Shown: positions 1-44,993 of the stretch, piece after piece | Layout: each line of letters begins with the position of its first letter | How positions within the stretch are numbered: the stretch's first letter is position 1 | IMG/VR virus record: IMGVR_UViG_2684622541_000015 | Source: a virus | Lineage: Duplodnaviria > Heunggongvirae > Uroviricota > Caudoviricetes | Reading direction: 5' to 3' (one strand) | Length of the DNA: 45,369 nt | Made by a program: the position numbers and the translations under genes | The notes under the pieces: model-generated | Told to the model about the DNA's origin: nothing | Seen by the model: only the letters and a program-made list of their open reading frames with translations | Database searches by the model: none

Positions 1-573
1 ATGTTTTGCGAAGAAAAAGTAGCTCAAATGGCTGCATACCTACTTCTTAAGCGAGGTGGGCGCATGGCATATCTGAAATTGATGAAGCTGCTCTATCTGT
101 CTAACCGCAAGTCGATTTTGAAGCATGGCAGGATGATCGGCGAAGATAGCCTTTACTCTATGAAATTTGGTCCAGTCATGTCGAATACGCTGAACTTGAT
201 TCGTGGTAAGGCTGAAGGTATTGGTGACTACTGGTACAACCTGATAGAGACGAACGGGCATGATGTGTTGTTGCGTTCAGATCCGAGGGAAATGGATGCA
301 GACGAGGTCTTTGATGAGTTGAGCCGTGCAGATATCCGGATTTTAGATGAAATCTATTCTCTGTATGGGCATATGAACCGATTTGATCTCGCAAACATGA
401 CGCATTTAGAAAGCGTTTGTCCAGAGTGGCACAATCCTGGCAATTCTCGTAAGCCTATAGACCTGAAAGAAATGCTGATCAGTGAGGGTAAAAGCGAGGA
501 TGAGGCTAATCGTATAATTGGCAAAATGGAAGAATCTCAGAAACTTAAGGAATTTTCTTTGCAATTATCATGA
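1..573 (+). CDS. Panacea-domain (DUF4065/GepA-like) protein, putative antitoxin; N-terminus may be cut by the window edge
   Basis: ORF starts at base 1. Motif KLMKLLYLSNRK...KFGPVMSN matches the hKLxKLLYxx...GPV signature I recall for Panacea/COG3600 proteins. Stop overlaps next ORF start (ATGA). Confidence 0.55.
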   Translation: MFCEEKVAQMAAYLLLKRGGRMAYLKLMKLLYLSNRKSILKHGRMIGEDSLYSMKFGPVMSNTLNLIRGKAEGIGDYWYNLIETNGHDVLLRSDPREMDADEVFDELSRADIRILDEIYSLYGHMNRFDLANMTHLESVCPEWHNPGNSRKPIDLKEMLISEGKSEDEANRIIGKMEESQKLKEFSLQLS

Positions 574-989
574 CGGATTATCAGCCATACAGGAAAGGAA
601 CTGTGCTTGCCCCAACTGGGCCATGCAATCATCTTCATGTGATTTGTAATGATCCTGTTTATTACCCCGTTAACGATTGTTATTGTGTTTTAGTTGTTAA
701 TATTTCTAGTATCAAGGATGGTGTCCCCCACGATCCGTCTTGCGTCTTGAATTCTGGTGATCATCGCTTTATCAAGCATCCAAGTTATGTTGTTTACGCT
801 GAAGCTATAATTTGGCGAGTGGATAACATGGTTAGAAAGCAGCGATCGGGTGAGATTTCCGTTCATGATGATATGCCAGAAGCTACATTCAATAGAATTC
901 TGGACGGTTTTGATATATCTGATGAAGTTACGCCAAAGAACCTTAAATTTAAAAATAAATATTGCGTATCATCTATTGATGATGAGTAA
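570..989 (+). CDS. hypothetical protein; candidate toxin partner of the upstream Panacea protein
   Basis: 139-aa ORF whose ATG overlaps the upstream stop by 4 bp (translational coupling). No motif recognised; Cys/His-rich N-terminal half. Confidence 0.45.
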   Translation: MTDYQPYRKGTVLAPTGPCNHLHVICNDPVYYPVNDCYCVLVVNISSIKDGVPHDPSCVLNSGDHRFIKHPSYVVYAEAIIWRVDNMVRKQRSGEISVHDDMPEATFNRILDGFDISDEVTPKNLKFKNKYCVSSIDDE

Positions 990-1567: not shown

Positions 1568-2362
1568 TTACTTATTCATTTCAATAATATTATTTTCTAT
1601 CATTGATTTATTTAAAACCAAAGAAGGAGCAAGATGGTTGTCTATTTTAAACAATGCATAACTTTTAAACTGTTGGTGATATCCGTAACTAATAAGGATG
1701 CTAGAAAAATCTCTTAATTCATCTTCTTTTAAAAAATTAAAATGAAATGGGTTGTCACCATTTATGAACAATGAAACATCTATTATGCAGTATTTCTCTC
1801 CGTTGTCATTTGCATAGAAAAAAATATAAGACATTCTGTTTGTTAAGACAATGCCATTAAATTTTCTTATGTCTGTAGCTATTTTGTTTTCCATGTTTGG
1901 TGCTACATATTTATTTTCAGAAATACATTTAATTTCATCTCCAGATGTCGTGATTATATAAAAATGAAACTTATCAGAAATATCTAACTTAACTACGCCA
2001 TCATTATTGTAAAGGCTGCTAAATTTTGGTGGTTCAACTTTTAAAGAATCATAGTTCTTTAAAAGAAGAGGGGAGTCAAATTTAATAACTTGTAGTATCC
2101 CTTTACCTTCAACCTCCATATTGATTGAAGATATAGCAATTGCATTATCTCTTTTATTATTCAGGATTATGGTTGATATATGCATGTCATATATTCTACT
2201 TGCATTTGCTGAATACGACACTGTCACCTTTTTTGATATTTTTTGCACGCCAAAATATATAGTGAAGGCAGCGGCAAGAATAGATAAGAATTTAATGTCA
2301 AATAAGGACCATAGCCACATTAGTTGCTCAATTGCTTCAGAGTTAATCATTTGCTTTACCAT
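1568..2362 (-). CDS. AT-rich membrane-anchored hypothetical protein (early-region moron)
   Basis: Long ORF in visibly AT-rich DNA. One N-terminal hydrophobic helix (LMWLWSLFDIKFLSILAAAFTIYFGV) followed by a ~220-aa domain with no recognised motif. Start uncertain: ORF-track start at 2401 is TTG; in-frame ATGs at 2362 and 2350. Confidence 0.55.
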   Translation of the reverse strand: MVKQMINSEAIEQLMWLWSLFDIKFLSILAAAFTIYFGVQKISKKVTVSYSANASRIYDMHISTIILNNKRDNAIAISSINMEVEGKGILQVIKFDSPLLLKNYDSLKVEPPKFSSLYNNDGVVKLDISDKFHFYIITTSGDEIKCISENKYVAPNMENKIATDIRKFNGIVLTNRMSYIFFYANDNGEKYCIIDVSLFINGDNPFHFNFLKEDELRDFSSILISYGYHQQFKSYALFKIDNHLAPSLVLNKSMIENNIIEMNK

Positions 2363-2538
2363 TATCGCTGTAATACAACACATGTGTGTATATATACGCA
2401 ATGCAATTATTTTGCAAGTGCTTCATTTACTATCAATAGCTACGTCACGTTATTGTTTAATGGTTCTTTATAGGGGCGGCAATAGTTAAAATTATCGCTT
2501 CCGTAAATGCCCCCGCAGGGGCATTTGCAGTAATGAAA

Positions 2539-3363
2539 TCAGGCGGTGAAAGTACCAATAAAGGTTTCTACTTTGCTGTCTTTGAATTTCTCAACAAGCA
2601 GATCACGAAATTCGTTAGCCATTTCTTCCTGTACCGCTTCCAGCTGAATAATGCGCAGAACCAGTACAGGACGATCGCCAGTGATAATGCTGAGGCGTAA
2701 TTTAAACGGACGTTCTTTCAGACCTTCAAACGGAACGCATTTAAATTCAAATGCCACTGGCATAATGTCTTTGGTCTTCGCTTCGACAGACTCCATCAGG
2801 GAGCGTTTGCCGCTGAAGTCATTATCTTCAAAATCAGCGGTCTGGTTCGCTTCAATTGTGATTTTACGGATCGCCGCAGCCGCTTTGGTTGCCTGAATGG
2901 CGTCACCATTAGCATCAAAGCCCACAAGGTAGTCGGCCCAGTCTTCAATCCATTCTGCCAGTGACTTCTGGGAGTTACGCTCGCCATTAACAGACAACAG
3001 AGCAGAGAACGGAGCTGTCTTTTTCAGTTTGAGAGTGGCGGTGTTATCTGCGTGACCTGGTTCATCAATAGTACCCAGGTTAAGAACACTGACGGCACGC
3101 ATATTATCAGCATCGATAAAGCAGCGGGTGCCTTCATCTGCAAGATCTTTAGAATAACGAGTAAAGTCATCGATGCTGGCAGTGGAAAGCGCACCACGGA
3201 AACGGAAACGATTTAAATTTAATTTTTCCAGATCATGAATGCGGAAATTCTCAGGCAATGCCACAGCATCGGCACCAATCTTACTGATAATTTCATTAAC
3301 ACCCTGAGCAGAAATAAGGGCATGGATTTGATTAATTGCGGTTGCGTCTAAGTTCTGAGACAT
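2539..3363 (-). CDS. YfdQ-like (DUF2303) phage protein
   Basis: 274-aa ORF; length and sequence character match my recollection of the CPS-53 YfdQ family. Hairpin AAATGCCCC-N3-GGGGCATTT lies just downstream (2503..2526). Confidence 0.5.
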
Positions 3364-3428: not shown

Positions 3429-3791
3429 TTAATGACCTGCTGCGCGGAGTTTTCCGTCAGGTTCACCGGCAAGAGTCAGTAATTGTCCCTGGTCTTCCTG
3501 CAGAATAGTCAGGCGACCACCGCGATTGACATACATCGGCGTTTCGGTGGTGTCTTCTTCGGAAATTTTCCCGCGGTTAGTCGGGCGAACATATGAGAGT
3601 TTGTGTTTGATTTTCACACGGTTCTCATCAAATGGTTCGATTTCCAGGTTGAGTGAGACCTTACCTTTGGTTTTCGTGTTCATCACACCGGAAGCGACTT
3701 CACTGAGAACTGCGCCGATTTTGGTTTCAAATACGCCGCCGTCCAGCTCCCCAATAAATGCCTGCACATCAGTACTGCGTTCGCTAGCCAT
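3429..3791 (-). CDS. hypothetical early protein (YfdP-like by size and synteny)
   Basis: ATG at 3791 (MASERSTD...) preceded by AGGAGC; ~120 aa and directly upstream of the YfdQ-like gene. Longer track ORF to 3977 starts with TTG and is less likely. Confidence 0.4.
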   Translation of the reverse strand: MASERSTDVQAFIGELDGGVFETKIGAVLSEVASGVMNTKTKGKVSLNLEIEPFDENRVKIKHKLSYVRPTNRGKISEEDTTETPMYVNRGGRLTILQEDQGQLLTLAGEPDGKLRAAGH

Positions 3792-4477: not shown

Positions 4478-5152
4478 TTAGGCCTTTATTATGTATCTTC
4501 TTGGTTTTCCTGAGAAAATCACTGTACCAATTATAGAGCAATTACCGTTAATCTTAATGTAAGGCTCAGGCCAGTTTGGGTTTAATGCTTTGAGATAACG
4601 CTGTGTTCCATCTTCTATCAACCGCTTGAAGGTGGTTTCGCCTGTATCGTGCATCAATGCAATAACGTCGTCACCGTGGCAGGCAGGGACTTCAGGATCA
4701 ACAAAAATCATGTCTCCCGGGCGGTACTCATCAATCATTGAATCACCAATCACCCGCAAGATATAAGTCATTTCGCCACAGGGTACAGGGCAGGGATAAG
4801 TTTCTGCTGTGCTCAAATCAACCTCAGAATAGCCAACTTCTTTCCATGCTCCGGCCTGTACCCATGATATGACAGGGACTAACGTTATTTGTTTGTTAGT
4901 GATTGAAACGTCAGGTTTTTTTGTGATGTTCGTTGTCTGGTGTTCTTGATCAAGCCATCCGACAGGCAGGTCGAAACATTTTTCGATGTGCCGTGCCATG
5001 CTGTCACCGATATTTTTAGTTGCACCATCTCCCATAAACCTGCTGGTCTGGGTTGGCTCGCGATCAATCATGGTGGCAAAGGAAGAATTCCCGCCAACAC
5101 CATCTCTCAGTTTTCTGGCGTTAGACCGCCGGATGTCATGGACTGTTTTCAT
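4478..5152 (-). CDS. cI: CI-type phage repressor with C-terminal S24 (LexA-like) peptidase domain
   Basis: 224 aa; C-terminal half has the S24 fold signature (GDSM...PGD...; Ser/Lys dyad context). Divergent from a cro-like gene across an operator region. Confidence 0.8.
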   Translation of the reverse strand: MKTVHDIRRSNARKLRDGVGGNSSFATMIDREPTQTSRFMGDGATKNIGDSMARHIEKCFDLPVGWLDQEHQTTNITKKPDVSITNKQITLVPVISWVQAGAWKEVGYSEVDLSTAETYPCPVPCGEMTYILRVIGDSMIDEYRPGDMIFVDPEVPACHGDDVIALMHDTGETTFKRLIEDGTQRYLKALNPNWPEPYIKINGNCSIIGTVIFSGKPRRYIIKA

Positions 5153-5474: not shown

Positions 5475-6038
5475 ATGAGGCTAACCGTGGGTAAGCATCA
5501 CTGGAAAGTAGAAAAACAGCCTGAGTGGTACGTGAAAGCTGTCAGAAAAACTATCGCGGCGTTGCCGGGGGGTTACGCTGAAGCTGCTGAGTGGCTGGAT
5601 GTAACAGAGAACGCTTTATTCAACCGCCTTCGTGCAGATGGCGATCAGATTTTCCCGCTGGGATGGGCAATGATTTTACAGCGCGCGGCTGGCACTCACT
5701 ACATTGCGGATGCTGTCGCACAGTCTGCTGGTGGGGTGTTTGTATCGCTTCCTGAAATTGAGGAAGTAGAGAACGCCGATATAAACCAGCGCCTGCTGGA
5801 AGTCATCGAACAGATCGGGAGTTACTCAAAGCAGATTCGTTCGGCAATCGAAGATGGGGTAGTGGAGCCACACGAGCAGACAGCAATTAATGATGAGTTG
5901 TATCTGTCAATTTCGAAGCTCCAGGAGCATGCAGCACTGGTCTACAAAATCTTTTGCGCTCCAGAAAAGAGTGACGCCCGCGAGTGTGCAGCTCCGGGCG
6001 TCGTGGCGTTTTGTGTCTGTGGAGAAACTAACGCATGA
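5475..6038 (+). CDS. CII-like regulatory protein (phage 186 CII/CP76-like family, tentative)
   Basis: 187-aa ORF directly after cro; N-terminal region resembles what I recall of the phage regulatory CII (CP76) family. Not verified. Confidence 0.4.
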   Translation: MRLTVGKHHWKVEKQPEWYVKAVRKTIAALPGGYAEAAEWLDVTENALFNRLRADGDQIFPLGWAMILQRAAGTHYIADAVAQSAGGVFVSLPEIEEVENADINQRLLEVIEQIGSYSKQIRSAIEDGVVEPHEQTAINDELYLSISKLQEHAALVYKIFCAPEKSDARECAAPGVVAFCVCGETNA

Positions 6039-6871
6039 ACAGTTTAACGGCAAATAACCGTTTGTCGCAACAGCTGGTGGTCAGCGTCGCTGAACACCTG
6101 TTGTTACGGCATGAATGCAGATTACCAAATCACCTGGCTGTAAGTAACCACAGAGAACTTTACCTGACTGTGGGGGGCGAGTTGTGCAGGAACTTAACCG
6201 CTGGTTTCGTGACGGAAGAGGACTTTATGTTCATGTTATTCGTTGGGAGCCAGAAACACAGCGCGTTATCTATCTTCGCAAAGACTACCCGCATGAGTGC
6301 TTTAGTCCTTTGTGGAAATTCAGGCGTGATTTTGTTGAGTGTGAAGGACCACCAGCACATTGATTCTGCCATTCCGGGACGTTACACTGTTCAGGCACCT
6401 TATAAAGCGGGTGCCGGGATTGGCGTCCTGGAATTGATCAAGGCGATATATGACGCGCCAGCGTCTTTTTTATCGTCCGCATTTGCTCACATCAAAGTTA
6501 TGGTGGGCTGGGCGGGGGCATCGAAAGATGCGCCGGTTTCCTTGATCACCGGTTACGCCAACCCCGTTCAGTTCACCACCAGCGAAATTGGCGTTTCCGG
6601 TGGTGGAAGTATTTCACCGATCAAGGAGGCTGCCATCATGGCTACTGTCCCAGCCCTCACTCGTCTGAATGATGAAGACTTACATAAACTCAGTTATGTA
6701 ACAACTGCACTACGTGCTCTGCGCAAGGTAACTCTTTCGGATCCGCAGGCACATCAGGTTCTGGTAGAAACCCTTCTTAACTTGCAAGCTGAACGTATTC
6801 GTCTGGCGGATAAGGCTAATTTTCATATTCACCGTCTCCTGAATATCAGCGGAGGGCATCGTCATGCTTAA
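6035..6871 (+). CDS. hypothetical protein
   Basis: 278-aa ORF, start ATG overlaps the upstream stop (ATGA). No motif recognised. Confidence 0.4.
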   Translation: MNSLTANNRLSQQLVVSVAEHLLLRHECRLPNHLAVSNHRELYLTVGGELCRNLTAGFVTEEDFMFMLFVGSQKHSALSIFAKTTRMSALVLCGNSGVILLSVKDHQHIDSAIPGRYTVQAPYKAGAGIGVLELIKAIYDAPASFLSSAFAHIKVMVGWAGASKDAPVSLITGYANPVQFTTSEIGVSGGGSISPIKEAAIMATVPALTRLNDEDLHKLSYVTTALRALRKVTLSDPQAHQVLVETLLNLQAERIRLADKANFHIHRLLNISGGHRHA

Positions 6872-7100
6872 TCCGTTGATCCTCAATATTTGCCGTTTGC
6901 TTCAGCGTAAAAAAATATCAATTCCTACAGTTGGGCAGTGGTACACCACGCCTGCAGGGCATGTTCTACGTGTTAGCCTGGTTGACCGTGAATGCCAGAA
7001 GGTGATTTGTGAACCGCTGGGCCGTAATTACCGCGTCAGTATGCCGCTTATAGCCTTTCGCTCCGGAAAAAACATGAAGCATCTCGGAGGTGCAGCATGA
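6864..7100 (+). CDS. hypothetical small protein
   Basis: 78-aa ORF with GGAGGG RBS 7 nt upstream; stop overlaps the next gene start. Confidence 0.35.
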   Translation: MLNPLILNICRLLQRKKISIPTVGQWYTTPAGHVLRVSLVDRECQKVICEPLGRNYRVSMPLIAFRSGKNMKHLGGAA

Positions 7101-7915
7101 GTATGGAGCTGATGGTTAAAGCGATGAAAATTCGAGTGGGTAATCCATTGCGAAAACTGGTTCTGATCAAGCTGGCTGATAATGCCAGCGATCAGGGTGA
7201 GTGCTGGCCCAGCTACCAGCATATTGCTGACCAGTGCGAAATTAGCAAACGTTCTGTGATGAATCATATTGCGGCCCTTTGTGAGTCCGGGCTGGTAAAA
7301 AAAGTCACCCGGAAAGGTGAAAAAGGTAACTCAAGTAATATCTATCTCCTTCATCTGGATGGTGCAGGAGATTCACTAGGGGGTAGTGCAAATAATTCAC
7401 TATCTGGTGCAGCAAATTCACCAGGTAGTGCAGGAGTTGCACCAGGGGGTAGTGCAGGAGATTCACCCAGAACCAGTCACTCTTTTGAACCAGTCAAAGA
7501 ACCAGTCAATGAACCAATAGCTGTTGGTGCATCAGTTGATGAGTCCGTGCGAGTTCGTTCAAACCGACCGGAATACTCTCCGGAGTTTGAGCAGGCATGG
7601 CTGGCATATCCCAAACGTGCTGGTGGCAATTCAAAATCTGCAGCCTTCAAAGCCTGGAAAGCCCGTTTGAATGAGGGAGTAAACCCCGAAACCATGCTGG
7701 AAGGTGTGAAACGCTACGCGGGATGGGTATCTGCGATGGGTAACAGCGGCACACAATTTGTGAAACAGGCTGTCACGTTCTTTGGTCCGGATCGTCATTT
7801 CGAAGAATTCTGGGAAGTTCCTGCGGTATCTGCAGCCAGACGCGAGGACCCGTACTTCAAAGCCAGTTACGACAACGTGGACTACAGCCAGATCCCGGCA
7901 GGATTCAGGGGGTGA
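7097..7915 (+). CDS. replication initiation protein (N-terminal helix-turn-helix; O-like role)
   Basis: GGAGG RBS 6 nt upstream. N-terminus (LVLIKLADNASDQGECWPSYQHIADQCEISKRSVMNHIAAL) looks like the HTH replication-initiator family. Gly/Ser/Ala-rich linker; internal direct DNA repeats. Confidence 0.6.
   Translation: MSMELMVKAMKIRVGNPLRKLVLIKLADNASDQGECWPSYQHIADQCEISKRSVMNHIAALCESGLVKKVTRKGEKGNSSNIYLLHLDGAGDSLGGSANNSLSGAANSPGSAGVAPGGSAGDSPRTSHSFEPVKEPVNEPIAVGASVDESVRVRSNRPEYSPEFEQAWLAYPKRAGGNSKSAAFKAWKARLNEGVNPETMLEGVKRYAGWVSAMGNSGTQFVKQAVTFFGPDRHFEEFWEVPAVSAARREDPYFKASYDNVDYSQIPAGFRG
7361..7540. repeat. iteron-like direct repeats inside the replication gene (candidate origin)
   Basis: About five ~21-bp units ending in TTCAC/TTGCAC (7361..7476), then three copies of GAACCAGTCA plus a partial (7480..7530). 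Lambda ori lies inside O as iterons. Confidence 0.4.
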
Positions 7916-32128: not shown

Positions 32129-35100
32129 ATGGGTAAAGGCAGCAGTAAGGGGCATACCCCGCGCGAAGCAAAGGACAACCTGAAGTCCACGCAGTTGCTG
32201 AGTGTGATCGATACCATCAGCGAAGGGCCGGTTGAAGGTCCGGTGGATGGATTAAAAAGCGTGCTGCTGAACAGTACACCGGTGCTGGACAGTGAGGGGA
32301 ATACCAACATCTCTGGTGTCACGGTGGTGTTCCGGGCAGGTGAGCAGGAACAGACACCGCCGGAGGGATTTGAATCATCAGGTTCCGAGACGGTACTGGG
32401 TACGGAAGTGAAATACGACACGCCGATCACCCGGACCATCACGTCGGCAAACATTGACCGTCTGCGCTTTACCTTCGGTGTGCAGGCACTGGTGGAAACC
32501 ACCTCAAAGGGGGACAGGAATCCGTCGGAAGTCCGCCTGCTGGTTCAGATACAACGTAATGGTGGCTGGGTGACGGAAAAAGACATCACCATTAAGGGCA
32601 AAACCACCTCGCAGTATCTGGCCTCGGTGGTGGTGGGTAACCTGCCGCCGCGCCCGTTCAATATACGGATGCGCAGGATGACGCCGGACAGCACCACAGA
32701 CCAGCTGCAGAACAAAACGCTCTGGTCGTCATACACCGAAATCATCGATGTGAAACAGTGCTACCCGAACACGGCACTGGTCGGCGTGCAGGTGGATTCG
32801 GAGCAGTTCGGCAGCCAGCAGGTGAGCCGTAATTATCATCTGCGCGGGCGCATTCTGCAGGTGCCGTCGAGCTATAACCCGCAGACGCGGCAATACAGCG
32901 GTATCTGGGACGGAACGTTTAAGCCAGCATACAGCAACAACATGGCCTGGTGTCTGTGGGATATGCTGACCCATCCGCGCTACGGCATGGGGAAACGTCT
33001 TGGTGCGGCGGATGTGGACAAATGGGCGCTGTATGTCATCGGCCAGCATTGCGATCAGTCGGTGCCGGACGGTTTTGGCGGCACGGAGCCGCGCATCACC
33101 TGTAATGCGTACCTGACCACACAGCGCAAGGCGTGGGATGTGCTCAGTGATTTCTGCTCGGCGATGCGCTGTATGCCGGTATGGAACGGGCAGACGCTGA
33201 CGTTCGTGCAGGACCGACCGTCGGATAAGGTGTGGACCTATAACCGCAGTAATGTGGTGATGCCGGATGATGGTGCGCCGTTCCGCTACAGCTTCAGCGC
33301 CCTGAAGGACCGCCATAATGCCGTTGAGGTGAACTGGATTGACCCGAATAACGGCTGGGAGACGGCGACAGAGCTTGTGGAGGACACGCAGGCCATTGCC
33401 CGTTACGGTCGTAACGTCACGAAGATGGATGCTTTTGGCTGTACCAGCCGGGGGCAGGCACACCGCGCCGGGCTGTGGCTGATTAAAACAGAACTGCTGG
33501 AAACGCAGACCGTGGACTTCAGCGTGGGTGCCGAAGGGCTTCGCCATGTACCGGGCGATGTCATTGAAATCTGCGATGATGACTATGCCGGTATCCGCAC
33601 CGGCGGGCGCGTGCTGGCGGTAAACAGCCAGACCCGGACGCTGACGCTCGACCGTGAAATCACGCTGCCATCTTCCGGCACCACGCTGATAAGCCTGGTT
33701 GACGGGCAGGGGAGTCCGGTCAGCGTGGAGGTTCAGTCCGTCACCGACGGCGTGAAGGTGAAAGTGAGCCGTGTTCCTGACGGCGTTGCTGAATACAGCG
33801 TATGGGGGCTGAAGCTGCCGACGCTGCGCCAGCGCCTGTTCCGCTGCGTGAGTATCCGTGAGAACGACGACGGCACGTATGCCATCACTGCCGTGCAGCA
33901 TGTACCGGAAAAAGAGGCCATCGTGGATAACGGGGCGCACTTTGACGGCGACCAGAGCGGCACGGTAAATGGTGTCACGCCGCCAGCGGTGCAGCACCTG
34001 ACCGCAGAAGTCACCGCAGACAGCGGGGAATACCAGGTGCTGGCCCGCTGGGACACGCCGAAGGTGGTGAAGGGCGTGAGCTTCCTGCTTCGCCTGACCG
34101 TGGCAGCGGATGACGGCCGTGAGCGGCTGGTCAGCACGGCCCGGACGACGGAAACCACTTACCGCTTCACACAACTGGCTCTGGGGAACTACAGGCTGAC
34201 AGTCCGGGCAGTAAATGCGTGGGGGCAGCAGGGCGATCCGGCGTCGGTATCGTTCAGGATTGCCGCACCGGTAGCACCGTCGCGGATTGAGCTGACGCCG
34301 GGCTATTTTCAGATAACCGCCACGCCGCATCTTGCGGTTTATGACCCGACGGTACAGTTTGAGTTCTGGTTCTCGGAAAAACGGATTGCGGATATCAGGC
34401 AGGTTGAAACCACAGCCCGCTACCTTGGCACGGGGCTGTACTGGATAGCCGCCAGTATCAATATTAAGCCGGGCCATGATTATTACTTTTATATCCGCAG
34501 TGTGAACACCGTCGGCAAATCAGCATTCGTGGAGGCTGTCGGTCGGGCGAGCGATGATGCGGAAGGTTACCTGGATTTTTTCAAAGGCCAGATAACCGAA
34601 TCCCATCTCGGCCAGGAGCTGCTGGAAAAAGTCGACCTGACGGAGGATAACGCCAGCAGACTGGAGGAGTTTTCGAAAGAGTGGAAGGACGCCAACGATA
34701 AGTGGAATGCCATGTGGGGCGTCAAAATTGAGCAGACCAAAGACGGCAAACATTATGTCGCGGGTATTGGCCTCAGCATGGAGGACACGGAGGAAGGCAA
34801 ACTGAGCCAGTTTCTGGTTGCCGCTAACCGTATCGCGTTTATTGACCCGGCAAACGGGAATGAAACGCCGATGTTTGTGGCGCAGGGCAACCAGATATTC
34901 ATGAATGACGTGTTCCTGAAACGCCTGACGGCTCCCACCATTACCAGCGGTGGAAATCCGCCGGCATTTTCCCTGACACCAGACGGAAAGCTGACCGCTA
35001 AAAATGCGGATATCAGCGGTAATGTGAATGCAAATTCAGGGACGCTCAACAATGTCACGATTAACCAGAACTGTACGATTAAGGGCATGCTGGAGGCGAC

Positions 35101-35392
35101 CCAGGTCAGAGGAGATTTCGTTAAAGCTGTATCAAAAGCCTTCCCGAAAAAAGTCGGTACGTGGGGTAACACGGAAACACCAAACGGTACGGTTACAGTC
35201 ACCATCAGCGATGATCATAACTTTGACCGCCAGATTATTATTCCGCCCATTATTTTTAACGGTATAGCGTATGACGATCCGGGGAGCGGAAATAACCCAG
35301 GAGGCACGCGATACACGGGTTATGGTTTTGAAGTTCGCAAAAACGGCGTATTAATCGCATCCAGAGAAACTAAAGGGGCCATTCCCGGTAGT
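32129..35392 (+). CDS. tail tip / host specificity protein J-like, 3'-truncated by an assembly gap
   Basis: 1088 codons of a lambda J-like central fibre protein running into the N-run at 35393; the C-terminal receptor-binding region is not present in the sequence. Confidence 0.85.
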
Positions 35393-35803
35393 NNNNNNNN
35401 NNNNNNNNNNNNNNNNNNNNNNNNNNNNNNNNNNNNNNNNNNNNNNNNNNNNNNNNNNNNNNNNNNNNNNNNNNNNNNNNNNNNNNNNNNNNNNNNNNNN
35501 NNNNNNNNNNNNNNNNNNNNNNNNNNNNNNNNNNNNNNNNNNNNNNNNNNNNNNNNNNNNNNNNNNNNNNNNNNNNNNNNNNNNNNNNNNNNNNNNNNNN
35601 NNNNNNNNNNNNNNNNNNNNNNNNNNNNNNNNNNNNNNNNNNNNNNNNNNNNNNNNNNNNNNNNNNNNNNNNNNNNNNNNNNNNNNNNNNNNNNNNNNNN
35701 NNNNNNNNNNNNNNNNNNNNNNNNNNNNNNNNNNNNNNNNNNNNNNNNNNNNNNNNNNNNNNNNNNNNNNNNNNNNNNNNNNNNNNNNNNNNNNNNNNNN
35801 NNN
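35393..35803. other. assembly gap (411 N)
   Basis: Run of N; the track ORF spanning it is an artefact. Confidence 0.95.
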
Positions 35804-36076
35804 TGGTTCAGCGCGTATGCGATGGCGGGTGTGGCTTACAGCCGTGTGTCGACTTTCTCCGGGGATTATATCCGCGTAACTGACAATAAGGGGAAAACGC
35901 ACGATGTGCTGACCGGAAGTGATGACGGTCGCCACAGCAACACGTCTCTGGCGTGGGGAGCTGGCGTGCAGTTTAACCCGACCGAATCCGTGGCCATTGA
36001 TATTGCTTATGAAGGCTCCGGCAGTGGCGACTGGCGCACTGACGGTTTCATCGTGGGTGTCGGTTATAAATTCTGA
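35804..36076 (+). CDS. lom: Lom/Ail-family outer membrane protein, C-terminal fragment (5' end in gap)
   Basis: C-terminal beta-barrel strands ending …GFIVGVGYKF, the Ail/Lom/OmpX family ending; position between J and stf as lambda lom. Confidence 0.6.
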   Translation, partial: WFSAYAMAGVAYSRVSTFSGDYIRVTDNKGKTHDVLTGSDDGRHSNTSLAWGAGVQFNPTESVAIDIAYEGSGSGDWRTDGFIVGVGYKF

Positions 36077-39605: not shown

Positions 39606-40189
39606 TGGCATTCAGAATGAGTGAACAACCACGGACCATAAAAATTTATAATCTGCTGACCGGAACTAATGAATTTATTGGTGAAGGTGACGCATATATT
39701 CCGCCTCATACAGGTCTGCCAGCAAACAGTACCTATATTGCACCGCCAGATATTCCGGCTGGCTTTGTGGCTGTTTTCAACAGTGATGAGGCATCGTGGC
39801 ATCTCGTTGAAGACCATCGGGGTAAAACGGTTTATGACGTAGCGTCAGGGGACGCGTTATTTATTTCTGAACTCGGTCCGTTACCGGAAAATGTTACCTG
39901 GTTATCCCCGGAAGGGGAGTTTCAGAAGTGGAACGGCACAGCCTGGGTGAAGGATACGGAAGCAGAAAAACTGTTCCGGATCCGGGAGGCGGAAGAAACA
40001 AAAAACAGCCTGATGCAGGTAGCCAGTGAGCATATTGCGCCGCTTCAGGATGCTGCAGATCTGGAAATCGCAACGGAGGAAGAAACCTCGTTGCTGGAAG
40101 CCTGGAAGAAGTATCGGGTGTTGCTGAACCGTGTTGATACATCAACTGCACCTGATATTGAGTGGCCTGCGGTCCCTGTTATGGAGTAA
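39605..40189 (+). CDS. tfa: tail fibre assembly protein (Tfa-like)
   Basis: 194 aa directly after stf with overlapping start/stop; typical Tfa size and position. Confidence 0.7.
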
Positions 40190-40338: not shown

Positions 40339-41709
40339 CTATGATATCCCTGAAATGTCCTCTTCAAGCTCTTTTACTGATTTCGCAATTTTAAATTTAA
40401 ATTTTCTCTCTATTTCACTATTGCTAAGTTTTTTTTCATTCTCTTTCCCTATCCACATAGAAACAATTTCTCGTTTCTGAGATATATGTAGATTGTCAAA
40501 GTTAGGTATGTATTTAAAAGTCTCCGCTCTACCCCTGCGGAGTTCATAGAAAGTTTTAATCAAAGACTTTGGTTTTATTTCTGATGAAAGGCCGAATCGG
40601 CGGATAAGATTATTGATCGTATGATTAACAGCTCGAAGTTGAGCTGTTGACGTTATTTGTGAGAAGTACGATACCCATCCCAATCGTTTACCTTCAAACA
40701 CACATCCCGTAATTCTAAGATTTAGTTTCCACTGACAATATGCAACAGCTCGTTCTTTATCGCGCTTATTTTTAGCTTGTAGTAGAGCGTGTCTATATGC
40801 AGTAAAAATTTTTGCTAAGGATGACTCAAATCTAAGAATGCTCTCATGTTTTATCAATAATTCTCGATTTTTTATGTGGTAGCCCAAAAAGTTGAAACTT
40901 TCATCCAAGCTGCCTACTTTGGATTTTGAGTTCTCTTCATTTAATGGATGTGGGTTTAAATTTAATGATTGAAGCTTATCAATGATATGAGAAGCTATTT
41001 TTGTTGCTTGATATTTTGGTGTTAAAATAAGAATGTCATCAACGTATCGCATGTACCATATGTCATGCATTTTATTGATTTCATCATCGAAATTAGATAG
41101 TGATATTTCAGCTAAAATGTTTGATATCGCTAATCCCTGAGGTACTCCTCTGGTATTATTAGGGATACCTTTGCTTCCTGTGGTTCCACTTACAGTAGGC
41201 ACGATTAATGATGATGTTATTAACTGTCTAATTTCTTTTTTTCTAATTTTATTTTTTATTGCATTAATTATCAATTTATGTTCAATTGAAGGATAGAAAC
41301 TTTTAAGATCTATTTTTGCATATTCAGCATATAGACTGTTGTTTAATGCTTCTTTCAATGAGTCAATTACTGTATGTGGTAGTTTTAATCTGGACTTAGG
41401 ATATATTTCCGTAAGGCATTCACAGAGAGCTCTAAGAGTAATTCTGTCCCTAGCAGTTGGTATGGAAATCTGTCTGGGTGTAGAGTTAGCGCCTTTAGAT
41501 ATTAATTTTTCTTTATATGCTGTAAATTTGTAATTGCCAGAATTAACCTTTTCAAAAATGAAAGTGATCTCATTTTTTATTGTCAAATCAAGTTTTGATG
41601 GGCGAATCCGATCTATGCCAATCGCTCCTGATTCTTTGATTTTTTCAGAGTATACTTTTAGAAGATTTTTTTTCGAGAATGACTTTTTAAAAATTCTGCT
41701 TGCAGTCAT
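40339..41709 (-). CDS. reverse transcriptase (retron/Abi/UG-like; family unassigned) with ~150-aa C-terminal extension
   Basis: RT motifs read directly: KIDLKSFYPSI (motif A-like), RGVPQGLAISNILAEISL (motif B-like), YMRYVDDILIL (YxDD), FNFLGYHI (motif E-like). AT-rich. First ATG at 41709; track start 41715 is TTG. 5' end overlaps the upstream membrane-protein gene by ~23 nt. Confidence 0.75.
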   Translation of the reverse strand: MTASRIFKKSFSKKNLLKVYSEKIKESGAIGIDRIRPSKLDLTIKNEITFIFEKVNSGNYKFTAYKEKLISKGANSTPRQISIPTARDRITLRALCECLTEIYPKSRLKLPHTVIDSLKEALNNSLYAEYAKIDLKSFYPSIEHKLIINAIKNKIRKKEIRQLITSSLIVPTVSGTTGSKGIPNNTRGVPQGLAISNILAEISLSNFDDEINKMHDIWYMRYVDDILILTPKYQATKIASHIIDKLQSLNLNPHPLNEENSKSKVGSLDESFNFLGYHIKNRELLIKHESILRFESSLAKIFTAYRHALLQAKNKRDKERAVAYCQWKLNLRITGCVFEGKRLGWVSYFSQITSTAQLRAVNHTINNLIRRFGLSSEIKPKSLIKTFYELRRGRAETFKYIPNFDNLHISQKREIVSMWIGKENEKKLSNSEIERKFKFKIAKSVKELEEDISGIS

Positions 41710-42238
41710 AGTCAATCCAAAGATATATTAATGGGAGTATATAAAGTGCGGCAGTAATAAATATTCGAAGTAATATCCATAAAATAACAATTATTTTTTC
41801 TTTTTGTGTGGGGATCCTCGTCTTAAGTCCAACTTGAGTTACCCTTGAAATTTTATCATCTATGTCACGGTGATTCTCAACCTCATTGAGCAAATTAAAA
41901 TATTTTTCTTTCTGTTCAAGAGATAACTGTTGACTGGTGGTAATGTCAAAATAGAGTCGCTGTAGTGCAATATAATTCCTTCTCATGGCTATTGCTCGAC
42001 CACGAAAATCTAGGTTAGATACGATCAGAGAAATACCCAGTAGAGCCACTGAAAGTATCGCCGCAACGACATCTGTATTATCTCCTAGAACCTTTGGAAA
42101 TCGCAACGTTACAATTGAAAGTACCGCACTCAATATAGCATACCAAACGAGGATAAATTGAGAGTGTTTTTCAAGCCATTCTAGTCGATGGTGCGCTTGG
42201 ATACGTGCTTTATATGTAAACCAAATATTGTCATGCAT
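41687..42238 (-). CDS. small multi-pass membrane protein, candidate effector partner of the RT
   Basis: 183 aa with three hydrophobic segments (FILVWYAILSAVLSIVTL; VVAAILSVALLGISLIVS; IIVILWILLRIFITAALYILPLIYLWI) and a ~60-aa central soluble region. AT-rich; RBS AAAAAGGA before the ATG. Confidence 0.55.
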   Translation of the reverse strand: MHDNIWFTYKARIQAHHRLEWLEKHSQFILVWYAILSAVLSIVTLRFPKVLGDNTDVVAAILSVALLGISLIVSNLDFRGRAIAMRRNYIALQRLYFDITTSQQLSLEQKEKYFNLLNEVENHRDIDDKISRVTQVGLKTRIPTQKEKIIVILWILLRIFITAALYILPLIYLWIDYDCKQNF

Positions 42239-42769: not shown

Positions 42770-43867
42770 TCAAGAGGTCTTATTTCTGCTCCTTTGGAGT
42801 TCTTCAAAACGATTATGTAAAGATTTCGGATACAGTTCGGTATATACCTGCCATAGCACGTTTAATGAACGATGCCCTGTAACCTGAGCGACTTCCTCAA
42901 TACTAAAACCAGCCTCAAATAAGCGACTTGCCCCTTCTCTACGCAAATCATGGTATCTCAGATCTTTAATACCTAATTTGCTTCTTACCCTCTGAAATCC
43001 TGCGGTAACAGAAGTGCTGTTATATGGAAAAATGAATTCTGATTTTTTGGGTTGTCGCTGGACGATATCCCAGGCTTCCCCAAGCAAGGCAACTTTCATA
43101 TGGTTGCCTTCCTTTTTACGTGGATCTTTCCTGTCTCTTACTAGTATAGATTTTTGTTCCTGGTCGAGATCTTCCCATCGTAACCGGCATACTTCTCCGA
43201 TTCGCATACAGGACCACACAGAAAATTTGAGGATATCAACGAACGGAATTTTTGAGCATTTATGAGTAGATCGTTGTTGAAGGCCTTCAATGAGCATGTT
43301 CAGTTCATCAGATGCTGGTCTACGATTACGACGGTTTGATTTACCAATCAAACCGAGTTTAAGTAGATATGGACGAGCGCTTTTCGCCGGGTTTGATGTG
43401 TAATTGATTCCGTATACAGGTTTTGCCGCATCCAGAACACTGCCAAGATAACTAACATCGTGGCTGACTGTTGCTGGGCCTGCACCAGCGTTGTTTCTTA
43501 GCCTGCAATGTTCAATTACGTCATTTTCTGTCAGTTCAGATAGTTTGATCGCGGAGATGTCACTATCCATAAGCAGTTCCAGCACATATCTTTTAGTACG
43601 GCCTGCTTTACCTCCGGCATTTGGGTCATTTAAATATTTGTGTAGTAAGTCACGGACTGTAAGTCCGTCAACAGCATTTGATGATGGAATGCCATATAGA
43701 TCTAATTCCATCACTTTCTGTGCGCCCCATGTTTTGGCATGAGCATGTTTAGGGAATGTTTTGCTTTCCCTGTAAGTGATAACACCTTTTTCTTTGATAA
43801 TCACATTACAGCGATAGCGTGGTGTGCCATCGGATTTTAGTCGTTTCTCTATGTTATAGTACGCCAT
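42770..43867 (-). CDS. int: tyrosine recombinase / phage integrase, divergent from dusA
   Basis: 365 aa; C-terminal catalytic region (…HDLRREGASRLFEAG…VTGHRSLNVLWQVYTELYP) consistent with the tyrosine recombinase R-H-R-Y family; start lies 88 bp from the dusA start on the opposite strand. Confidence 0.85.
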   Translation of the reverse strand: MAYYNIEKRLKSDGTPRYRCNVIIKEKGVITYRESKTFPKHAHAKTWGAQKVMELDLYGIPSSNAVDGLTVRDLLHKYLNDPNAGGKAGRTKRYVLELLMDSDISAIKLSELTENDVIEHCRLRNNAGAGPATVSHDVSYLGSVLDAAKPVYGINYTSNPAKSARPYLLKLGLIGKSNRRNRRPASDELNMLIEGLQQRSTHKCSKIPFVDILKFSVWSCMRIGEVCRLRWEDLDQEQKSILVRDRKDPRKKEGNHMKVALLGEAWDIVQRQPKKSEFIFPYNSTSVTAGFQRVRSKLGIKDLRYHDLRREGASRLFEAGFSIEEVAQVTGHRSLNVLWQVYTELYPKSLHNRFEELQRSRNKTS

Positions 43868-43955: not shown

Positions 43956-44993
43956 ATGCACGATAATCCTGAAACACAGAAAACTAATCAAACCAGCGTG
44001 ATGCCTGAAAAAACTGGCGCTTACTGGAGTTCTCGGTTTAGCATTGCTCCTATGCTCGACTGGACGGACAGACATTGCCGCTATTTCTTGCGTCTGCTTT
44101 CCCGCAATACGTTGCTGTATACCGAAATGGTGACCACAGGGGCGATTATTCACGGTAAAGGTGATTACCTGGCGTACAGTGAAGAAGAACATCCGGTAGC
44201 GTTGCAACTCGGCGGTAGCGATCCGGCGGCGCTGGCACAGTGTGCGAAGCTGGCAGAAGCGCGTGGATATGATGAGATCAACCTGAATGTCGGCTGCCCG
44301 TCTGACCGGGTGCAGAACGGCATGTTTGGTGCGTGTCTGATGGGTAATGCGCAGCTGGTTGCCGACTGCGTGAAAGCGATGCGCGATGTGGTGTCGATTC
44401 CAGTGACGGTGAAAACGCGTATTGGCATCGATGACCAGGACAGCTATGAATTTCTCTGCGATTTCATCAACACCGTTTCCGGCAAAGGCGAGTGTGAGAT
44501 GTTTATCATCCACGCACGTAAAGCCTGGCTTTCGGGGTTAAGCCCGAAAGAAAACCGTGAAATCCCGCCACTCGATTATCCGCGTGTGTATCAACTGAAG
44601 CGTGACTTTCCGCATCTGACAATGTCGATTAACGGTGGTATCAAGTCGCTGGAAGAGGCCAAAGCACACCTGCAACATATGGATGGCGTGATGGTCGGGC
44701 GCGAGGCGTATCAGAATCCGGGTATTCTGGCGGCGGTAGACCGGGAGATCTTTGGTTCCTCGGATACCGATGCCGATCCGGTGGCGGTAGTGCGCGCCAT
44801 GTATCCGTACATTGAGCGTGAACTCAGCCAGGGGACGTATCTCGGCCATATTACCCGGCATATGTTGGGCTTGTTCCAGGGTATTCCTGGCGCGCGGCAG
44901 TGGCGGCGTTATTTAAGTGAAAATGCCCATAAAGCGGGTGCAGACATTAATGTGCTGGAACACGCGCTCAAACTGGTGGCGGATAAGCGTTAA
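43956..44993 (+). CDS. dusA: tRNA-dihydrouridine synthase A
   Basis: 345 aa; matches my recollection of E. coli DusA over nearly the full length (…[14 protein letters not shown]…[14 protein letters not shown]…[10 protein letters not shown]…). Confidence 0.9.

Follow-up and report, generated by a model that had tools for sequence, protein, structure and literature searches.

The DNA analyzed here (the window) is a prophage stretch of 45,369 nucleotides (nt), IMG/VR virus record IMGVR_UViG_2684622541_000015, and all coordinates below refer to it. The subject of this work is an AT-rich accessory cassette of 925 bp (positions 1564 to 2488) and its single gene, which is read from the minus strand between yfdQ and the excisionase gene xis and encodes a protein of 260 amino acids (aa). 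An initial annotation, made from the sequence without database searches, had described this gene as one of putative horizontal origin, encoding a single-pass membrane protein with a possible role in exclusion, defense, or host interaction.

Localization of the cassette gene in a dusA-integrated prophage

The genes on the minus strand are transcribed in the order LexA-family (cI-like) repressor gene (4478 to 5152), yfdP (3429 to 3791), yfdQ (2539 to 3363), the cassette gene, and xis (1250 to 1531). Both direct neighbors lie outside the cassette. The upstream neighbor, yfdQ, is a conserved phage early-left gene (Pfam DUF2303, 7.9e-93; RefSeq "YfdQ family protein"), and the downstream neighbor encodes a PrtN-family excisionase (Pfam PyocinActivator, 3.1e-23; phrog_1300 "excisionase," 1.1e-39). 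Past xis, a toxin-antitoxin pair with a Panacea domain was found together with a displaced dusA fragment, and an integrase gene (42770 to 43867) and intact dusA (43956 to 44993) are located at the opposite end of the window. Because the integrase gene and intact dusA stand at one end and the displaced dusA fragment at the other, the window was identified as a dusA-integrated lambdoid prophage. The cassette gene is positioned at the distal end of the early-left operon of this prophage.

The initial annotation had stated that CPS-53-type prophages carry yfdR to yfdT after yfdQ at this position. This statement agrees with phage PhiR29_1, in which YfdQ is followed at the same site by a YfdR-like protein (HD hydrolase), EaE, and YfdT. 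Phage mEp460 carries approximately 3.5 kb of other genes at this site (exonuclease, DUF551, Ea22-like, and 5'-nucleotidase genes). The yfdR, yfdS, and yfdT genes of CPS-53/KpLE1-type prophages and the mEp460 genes thus share the slot downstream of yfdQ with the cassette gene but are not homologous to it. Since a tblastn search of the Escherichia coli protein against 50,697 phage records, mEp460 and PhiR29_1 included, revealed no relative, the cassette was taken to replace the yfdR-type and mEp460 genes rather than to have diverged from them.

Composition and borders of the AT-rich cassette

The G+C content is 29.0% for the open reading frame (ORF), 29.8% for the cassette, and 49.6% for the whole window. 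The ORF value is about 2.8 standard deviations (SD) low (783-nt windows: mean, 0.497; SD, 0.073), and only three extended AT-rich islands, the ORF region among them, occur in the 45 kb. It had been noted earlier that the AT-rich character extends upstream of the gene to about position 2500 and sets this DNA apart from the neighboring phage genes; the low-G+C stretch was found to stop near 2488, where phage homology restarts. In a megablast search of positions 1200 to 2640 against the same phage records, only the xis side (1200 to 1563) and the yfdQ side (2489/2490 to 2640) aligned. Such flank-only matches occurred in 47 phage records, and the central 925 bp remained without a megablast match in any of them.

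No direct or inverted repeats flank the cassette borders. An insertion sequence (IS) or transposon origin was ruled out by the lack of flanking repeats; there is also no IS similarity, and RefSeq annotates a hypothetical protein only. An IS remnant as the source of the G+C skew, which the initial annotation had raised as a possible objection, found no support in repeats, IS similarity, or Rfam and Pfam matches. A noncoding RNA in the cassette was likewise ruled out, with no Rfam match in the region.

The AT-rich upstream leader of the cassette (2351 to 2488, minus strand) holds a weak sigma-70-like site, TTGATA-16 nt-CAAAAT, at 2436 to 2409. It matches the consensus at 9 of 12 positions and is a candidate promoter only. 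No terminator was seen in the interval between the gene and xis. A G+C-rich hairpin with a 9-bp stem (AAATGCCCC/GGGGCATTT) and a TGCG loop was read from the sequence at 2505 to 2526 on the minus strand, between the yfdQ stop codon, which it closely follows, and the cassette. This hairpin has no T-run and is part of the conserved yfdQ flank, the homology of which begins at 2489. Comparable hairpins precede homologs in the nin-region contexts described below.

The cassette gene and its start codon

The minus-strand ORF is intact and spans 1568 to 2401 when it is counted from the first TTG in the ORF list. The initial annotation had placed the start at the in-frame ATG at 2362. The ATG at 2350 is the likelier start on three grounds: it is the RefSeq start at a 100% identical locus (WP_047654657.1, "hypothetical protein," 260 aa); the homologs in Citrobacter, Klebsiella, Raoultella, Pantoea, and Buttiauxella all open with the equivalent M-[IL]-N; and phrog_14996 of PHROGs v4 matches the 264-aa version of the protein over its full length (E value, 2.4e-178; 591.9 bits), with residues 5 to 264 aligned to profile positions 1 to 260 of 260. 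The coding sequence was therefore assigned to 1568 to 2350 on the minus strand, with the TAA stop codon at 1568 to 1570 and a product identical to WP_047654657.1. The phrog_14996 profile represents the same family as the cassette protein but carries no annotation and so supplies a label without a function.

Comparison of the homologs argues for a real gene. Despite saturation at synonymous sites, six genera have retained its frame, and the ratio of nonsynonymous to synonymous substitution rates (dN/dS) is 0.16 to 0.42 where it is measurable. Between genera, dN amounts to 0.25 to 0.6. Close alleles gave fairly high dN/dS values, 0.42 in E. coli and 0.29 in Pantoea, which point to purifying but fairly relaxed selection.

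Predicted topology and structure of the cassette protein

A single hydrophobic segment was detected at residues ~10 to 36 (Kyte-Doolittle value of 1.68 at residues 13 to 31), and no other segment reaches 1.4. AlphaFold2 with a 135-sequence alignment generated a structural model with a mean predicted local distance difference test score (pLDDT) of 93.7 and a predicted template modeling score of 0.82. Together with the hydrophobicity profile, the model places a membrane anchor at residues ~10 to 38, followed by a beta-rich domain of about 220 aa (residues ~40 to 260). Helices are predicted at residues 4 to 16 and 19 to 38, followed by 16 strands and, after the anchor, only short helices at 209 to 227 and 248 to 259. 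The modeled domain comprises a first beta-sandwich (residues ~42 to 141), a disordered loop (147 to 151), a second beta unit (156 to 198), and a small alpha/beta C terminus (209 to 259).

The number of lysine plus arginine residues averages 0.34 before the anchor and 2.4 in the 15 residues after it, and this bias is present in 129 of the 135 members. According to the positive-inside rule, which is well established, the bias predicts a bitopic protein with a short periplasmic N terminus and a soluble domain in the cytoplasm (N-out, C-in).

Searching the sequence databases for known domains revealed no significant similarity. The best Pfam-A match was Ig_TMEM131L_3 with 16.1 bits (cutoff, 28), NCBIfam gave none, and the E. 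coli protein had no match at an E value of ≤1 in PADLOC-DB v2.0.0, a 2023 library limited to the systems described by then. Searches of the Protein Data Bank (PDB) with the single sequence and with the 135-sequence profile returned nothing usable. The nearest fold types are the immunoglobulin (Ig)-like, ApaG, PapD-chaperone, and carbohydrate-binding module (CBM) beta-sandwich folds. As modeled, the domain has no close counterpart in PDB or BFVD beyond a generic Ig-like sandwich and shows no recognizable enzyme fold. The hydrophobicity profile, the model, and the Pfam, NCBIfam, and PADLOC results thus bear out the earlier description of one N-terminal transmembrane (TM) helix and a beta-rich soluble domain without recognized motifs.

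Alignment of the family members revealed near-invariant residues at positions K37, N65, K/R67, D68, P94, K98, S111, C142, Y179, G194, and N205, and no catalytic motif of a known type stands out among them. The family varies most in a surface loop at residues ~143 to 163; of the 19 differences that separate two E. coli alleles, 6 fall within this loop.

Distribution of the protein family

An exhaustive profile search identified 221 clusters (50% identity) at an E value of ≤1e-3, 141 of them at ≤1e-10. Nearly all of these clusters consist of proteins of 230 to 280 aa, which align end to end and share the same architecture. With a word-indexed search, no more than 11 clusters were recovered (40 to 92% identity), all of them from E. 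coli, Citrobacter, and Klebsiella. Full-length homologs with 40 to 64% identity are kept in the six genera. Members with an identifiable organism belong to three gammaproteobacterial orders (Enterobacterales, Pseudomonas, and Acinetobacter members). A tblastn search of a Pseudomonas homolog against the phage records revealed one Acinetobacter phage only. PADLOC analysis of 135 members gave no shared match and two unrelated single matches, and no Pfam family is shared among 60 members.

The enterobacterial subalignment was compared with one genome per species from 185,579 species and matched 3 loci, two in Pantoea and one in Buttiauxella; IMG/VR contains 33 viral contigs with family members. 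On the basis of these counts, the enterobacterial subclade is rare and mainly prophage borne. The family is previously undescribed: there is no curated model, and literature searches on the accession, the PHROG number, and yfdQ-linked defense found nothing. Nor did these analyses yield a homolog of a conserved phage early gene, a finding that would have spoken against the initial annotation.

Among complete E. coli genomes, the cassette was found in 99 of 5,426, always as a single chromosomal copy, and the adjacent xis segment was found in 741; about 13% of the prophages having the flanking xis therefore carry the gene. All five E. coli copies that were inspected show the same xis-gene-yfdQ-yfdP arrangement at dusA, with an immunity region and a toxin-antitoxin partner that vary by strain. 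In one of the 99 carriers, strain E89 (NZ_CP121157.1; locus L028, 2529 to 3845), IS1X2 is inserted in the gene and leaves a 183-aa remnant. The cassette is accessory and stands in for other genes between yfdQ and xis. Horizontal acquisition as an early-left moron, as proposed in the initial annotation, is supported by flanks that match phages around a center that is absent from them, by the 99 versus 741 genomes, and by the AT-rich homologs.

Genomic contexts of relatives

Approximately 18 dereplicated contexts were examined, a small and nonrandom sample. There, members stand alone as single genes, and the variable cargo loci that house them belong to prophages, satellites, an integrative and conjugative element (ICE), and small plasmids. 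The enterobacterial homologs have a G+C content of 0.29 to 0.35 in every host examined, with neighbors mostly at 0.45 to 0.58, and they occupy three slots. One is the yfdQ-xis interval in E. coli. Another, at the ends of islands or prophages, immediately precedes a small xis-like gene and an integrase gene (Citrobacter loci L005 to L008; IMG/VR loci L044 to L046 and L053). In the remaining slot, the replication genes lie on one side and the nin region on the other, and the homolog precedes a HolE-theta or DUF1367 gene; this slot belongs to lambdoid and podovirus-like prophages (Klebsiella, Raoultella, L047 to L052, and L057 to L061).

In six of the nin-region loci (L015, L047, L051, L054, L057, and L060), a common G+C-rich hairpin (e.g., CTCCCCTCAT..AGGGGAG) is located right after the upstream gene, about 30 to 60 nt before the start codon. 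The same homologs have a conserved ribosome-binding region, aatGGATGnnAA-ATG, despite coding sequences that are saturated at synonymous sites. The hairpin may terminate transcription or mark the border of a cassette.

Several enterobacterial and metagenomic homologs adjoin known defense genes. The Pantoea homologs adjoin Retron II-A (reverse transcriptase [RT], 5.6e-107; NDT, 2.1e-59), and at one of the two Pantoea loci (L023), Retron II-A is followed by a P4-type primase gene in a P4-like satellite. Homologs adjoin IetA (1.9e-143) and IetS (3.9e-290) at L051/52 and RmrT (9e-26) and RmrA (6e-107), the RmrTA (Rosmer) system, at L049/50. On a metagenomic contig (L066), the start codon of the homolog overlaps the stop codon of a gene for an MmeI-type enzyme. 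The Citrobacter loci L005 to L008 retain, upstream of the homolog, a gene (6015 to 7448) for a 477-aa protein that matches neither Pfam nor PADLOC models; the setting is the junction of several distinct islands (P4-like, CP4-57-like with CbtA/CbeA, and others).

Distant relatives, with 20 to 30% identity, were found in Pseudomonas, Acinetobacter, ICE, and island contexts. In Pseudomonas P2-like prophages, the relative adjoins the portal gene at the hotspot side; the GpA-GpQ interval, from the phage replication genes to the portal gene, has been named the main P2 defense hotspot (PMC13586616). The Pseudomonas relative is positioned 42 to 50 nt after a gene for a 455-aa AAA_16/AAA_22/NB-ARC-like ATPase (L013, 6589 to 7959; L014, 6584 to 7951), which has a weak PADLOC PDC-S59 match (1.5e-7). 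This ATPase, encoded at the portal-gene end of the prophage, may be an undescribed system, alone or together with the family member. At an Acinetobacter locus, the relative lies between umuDC and an SRAP gene, with putAbiC next after SRAP, two genes away. Relatives were also found beside the integrase gene of the temperate Acinetobacter phage ABMM1 and on small Acinetobacter plasmids, on one of which mazEF is near and on one of which the relative begins 68 nt after the gene for a 427-aa protein. A further relative is located at the edge of an ICE, and another lies in a Pseudomonas-type island with HEPN, DUF4062, and MvaT genes nearby. In two of the distant-relative contexts, the neighbors were uninformative.

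A conserved ATPase partner was ruled out, as the upstream proteins in Pseudomonas, in Citrobacter, and on the Acinetobacter plasmid (~430 to 480 aa) are unrelated to each other; the family therefore has no fixed partner. A known defense system is the very next gene in 4 of the ~18 contexts. As a yardstick, 2% of E. coli genes overall and 17% of known defense genes are no more than 10 genes away from a known defense gene (PMC13092281). Because the sample is small and nonrandom, the comparison with these figures is suggestive and no statistic is attached to it.

Other features of the host prophage

The Panacea-domain pair at the xis end of the window (1 to 989, plus strand) consists of a Panacea/SocA-like antitoxin-domain protein (Pfam, 1.8e-18) and an overlapping 139-aa ORF beside the displaced dusA fragment. 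The two genes, which have no PADLOC match, are a likely toxin-antitoxin pair, and other strains carry different alleles of both. A second AT-rich island (40339 to 42238, minus strand; G+C content, ~0.30) is located between a tail fiber assembly gene and the DinI/integrase genes. It encodes a UG17-group defense-associated RT (PADLOC RT_UG17, 1.1e-158), followed by a SLATT partner (RTasSLATT, 1.5e-56). As judged from these profile matches, the host prophage carries a recognized defense-associated RT (DRT)-type system.

The G+C minimum of the window (0.22) lies at 34811 to 36076, in the C-terminal part of a tail-tip J-like ORF of 1,315 aa (32129 to 36076, plus strand), and suggests that the receptor-binding region was exchanged recently. 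No PADLOC match was obtained for the two antisense ORFs within 34811 to 36076. Gathering-level Rfam matches on the plus strand were obtained for isrK (6395 to 6471) and C4 antisense RNA (6496 to 6583), just downstream of the immunity region, and for "IS009" RNA (39948 to 40146), inside the tail fiber assembly gene.

Discussion

The cassette gene is familiar in kind, an AT-rich moron and candidate defense or exclusion gene in a prophage variable region, and belongs to a family that is itself new. We consider the chances about even that it encodes a stand-alone membrane-tethered anti-phage protein, acting by exclusion or abortive infection and protecting the lysogen, a reading drawn from genomic context. 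In support of this reading, the same prophage has the UG17 RT with its SLATT partner and the Panacea toxin-antitoxin pair in AT-rich islands, and family members recur beside defense systems or at defense hotspots (Retron II-A, IetAS, RmrTA, the MmeI-type enzyme, the P2 portal side, and putAbiC). Also in its favor are the accessory nature of the cassette, a family that shares one architecture but no PADLOC or Pfam match, the repeated placement in variable cargo loci of unrelated elements, the predicted SNIPE-like topology (see below), and the variable surface loop with the fairly high dN/dS of close alleles.

According to this model, a single-gene cassette would have been gained horizontally in the yfdQ-xis variable slot of dusA-integrating lambdoid prophages. 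Its product would be tethered to the inner membrane by one TM helix, with a short periplasmic N terminus and a two-lobed beta-rich cytoplasmic domain. This would put it on the cytoplasmic side of the inner membrane, at the place reached by phage genomes and their ejection proteins on entry. A conserved polar patch (N65, K/R67, D68, K98, S111, and C142) and the hypervariable loop at residues ~143 to 163 may bind a phage or host component of the entry process. Binding would then either block genome entry (superinfection exclusion) or serve to sense infection, after which the membrane would be damaged (abortive infection). The present data do not separate an entry block from a membrane lesion, and we infer both variants. 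A binding or blocking role, or oligomerization, is slightly favored because the protein has a single anchor and no enzyme or obvious pore-forming element. It is a more tentative proposal, and one that we hold to be somewhat doubtful, that the protein is the founding member of a nonenzymatic single-protein immunity family, in which the loop of a cytoplasmic beta-sandwich recognizes the phage genome delivery machinery from the inside of the membrane and the protein plugs entry or oligomerizes into a lesion, being recruited in some lineages beside ATPase or MmeI-type partners.

Comparison with known systems places these proposals in context. SNIPE is a membrane-bound anti-phage nuclease of E. coli that is encoded by a single accessory gene; by experiment, it has a periplasmic N terminus, one TM helix, and cytoplasmic domains, and it acts where phage DNA enters at the inner membrane (Saxton et al., Nature 2026, PMC13190303). 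The topology predicted for the cassette protein is the same as that determined experimentally for SNIPE, and SNIPE is the closest functional analog of that topology. SNIPE relies for its activity on DUF4041 plus a nuclease domain of the GIY-YIG type (PMC13190303), whereas the cassette protein has neither. As its model consists of an all-beta sandwich and a small alpha/beta C terminus, with no nuclease-like fold, the protein is predicted to be unable to act by DNA cleavage.

Membrane proteins for prophage-encoded superinfection exclusion (Sie) include SieB and RexB of lambda, SieA of P22, gp15 of HK97, and the lactococcal Sie2009. Their genes are morons in or beside the lysogeny or early-left module, and the proteins are membrane associated, patchy in distribution, and protective for the lysogen; the cassette protein is likened to them, with a putative role in exclusion. 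Sie2009-type proteins have one N-terminal anchor like the cassette protein, and their genes lie between the integrase and repressor genes. In contrast to the cassette protein, the domain of which is predicted to be cytoplasmic, several Sie proteins are polytopic or oriented toward the periplasm. Searches with Pfam, PHROG annotation, and PADLOC revealed no sequence or profile similarity to Sie-type proteins, and lambda rex and sieB are analogs in position and logic only.

Several observations weigh against an anti-phage function. PADLOC found no homology to a validated defense or exclusion protein for the E. coli protein or the 135 members, and the family accessions are absent from the DefensePredictor supplements. 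There is no enzymatic or pore-forming domain, which leaves the effector step unaccounted for. Adjacency to defense genes is expected of any cargo gene in a hotspot, since hotspots also hold nondefense morons, and about 10 of the 18 contexts have no recognized defense neighbor. The E. coli gene is also codirectional with the early-left operon, its own promoter is a candidate only, no terminator was seen before xis, and a consensus scan found promoter-like sites in the region no more frequently than expected from shuffled sequence. Of the initial interpretation, the horizontal acquisition has held up, and the exclusion or defense role draws on genomic context, with no homology to a known defense protein beside it.

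Since the gene is codirectional with the operon and has no more than a candidate promoter of its own, it could be a lytic-cycle gene, expressed from the early-left promoter for lytic growth or induction (e.g., to take over the host at the membrane, inhibit one of its processes, or counter a host defense) and giving no protection to the lysogen. The shared orientation with yfdP, yfdQ, and xis and the codirectional flanking phage genes of the enterobacterial nin-region homologs fit such a role. We nevertheless regard it as unlikely, because members also occur in nonphage elements (ICE edge, small plasmids, and genomic islands), because the gene is carried by a minority of the xis-sharing prophages (~13%) and sits in three different slots across phages, and because most of the known proteins for anti-defense and takeover are small and soluble. 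There is a similarly low probability that the protein serves two-gene systems as their conserved membrane part (effector or anchor), with a partner that varies, the E. coli copy being an orphan or having its partner elsewhere. The close spacing to the ATPase gene in Pseudomonas and to the 427-aa protein gene on the Acinetobacter plasmid, the start-stop overlap with the MmeI-type gene, and the retained 477-aa protein in Citrobacter are in line with this possibility, but the three upstream proteins are mutually unrelated, most contexts have no candidate partner and instead show complete known systems or ordinary phage genes as neighbors, and the E. coli cassette has one gene only.

A factor for lysogenic conversion or host physiology unrelated to phage (e.g., in envelope, stress, or colonization functions) is improbable. 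Conversion genes are often located near the att/int/xis end of prophages, where the cassette also lies, and a membrane-anchored protein with an Ig-like sandwich resembles protein- or carbohydrate-binding modules; the predicted cytoplasmic orientation, however, opposes a role at the surface or in the periplasm, transferase and enzyme domains are lacking, and the recurring neighbors are defense systems rather than virulence or metabolic genes. Finally, AT-rich DNA yields long ORFs in several frames, and the gene is interrupted by IS1 in one strain, as might be expected of a chance ORF or a decaying remnant in AT-rich junk DNA. This explanation is extremely improbable and was rejected on the evidence of conservation: full-length homologs with saturated synonymous sites and dN/dS values below 0.45 in the six genera, the ~221 family clusters, and a coevolution-driven model of high pLDDT all contradict it.

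Hotspots in prophages and satellites are the richest source of new immune systems. The family described here is compact, with one 260-aa protein, occurs in at least three gammaproteobacterial orders and at least five kinds of mobile element, and is absent from the defense databases searched. To our knowledge, few mechanisms are known for nonenzymatic membrane-tethered cytoplasmic anti-phage proteins. If the protein blocks infection, it would show how such a protein stops a phage. If it has no role in defense, the family would be a clear case of nondefense cargo that travels with defense systems and would serve to calibrate guilt-by-association predictions.

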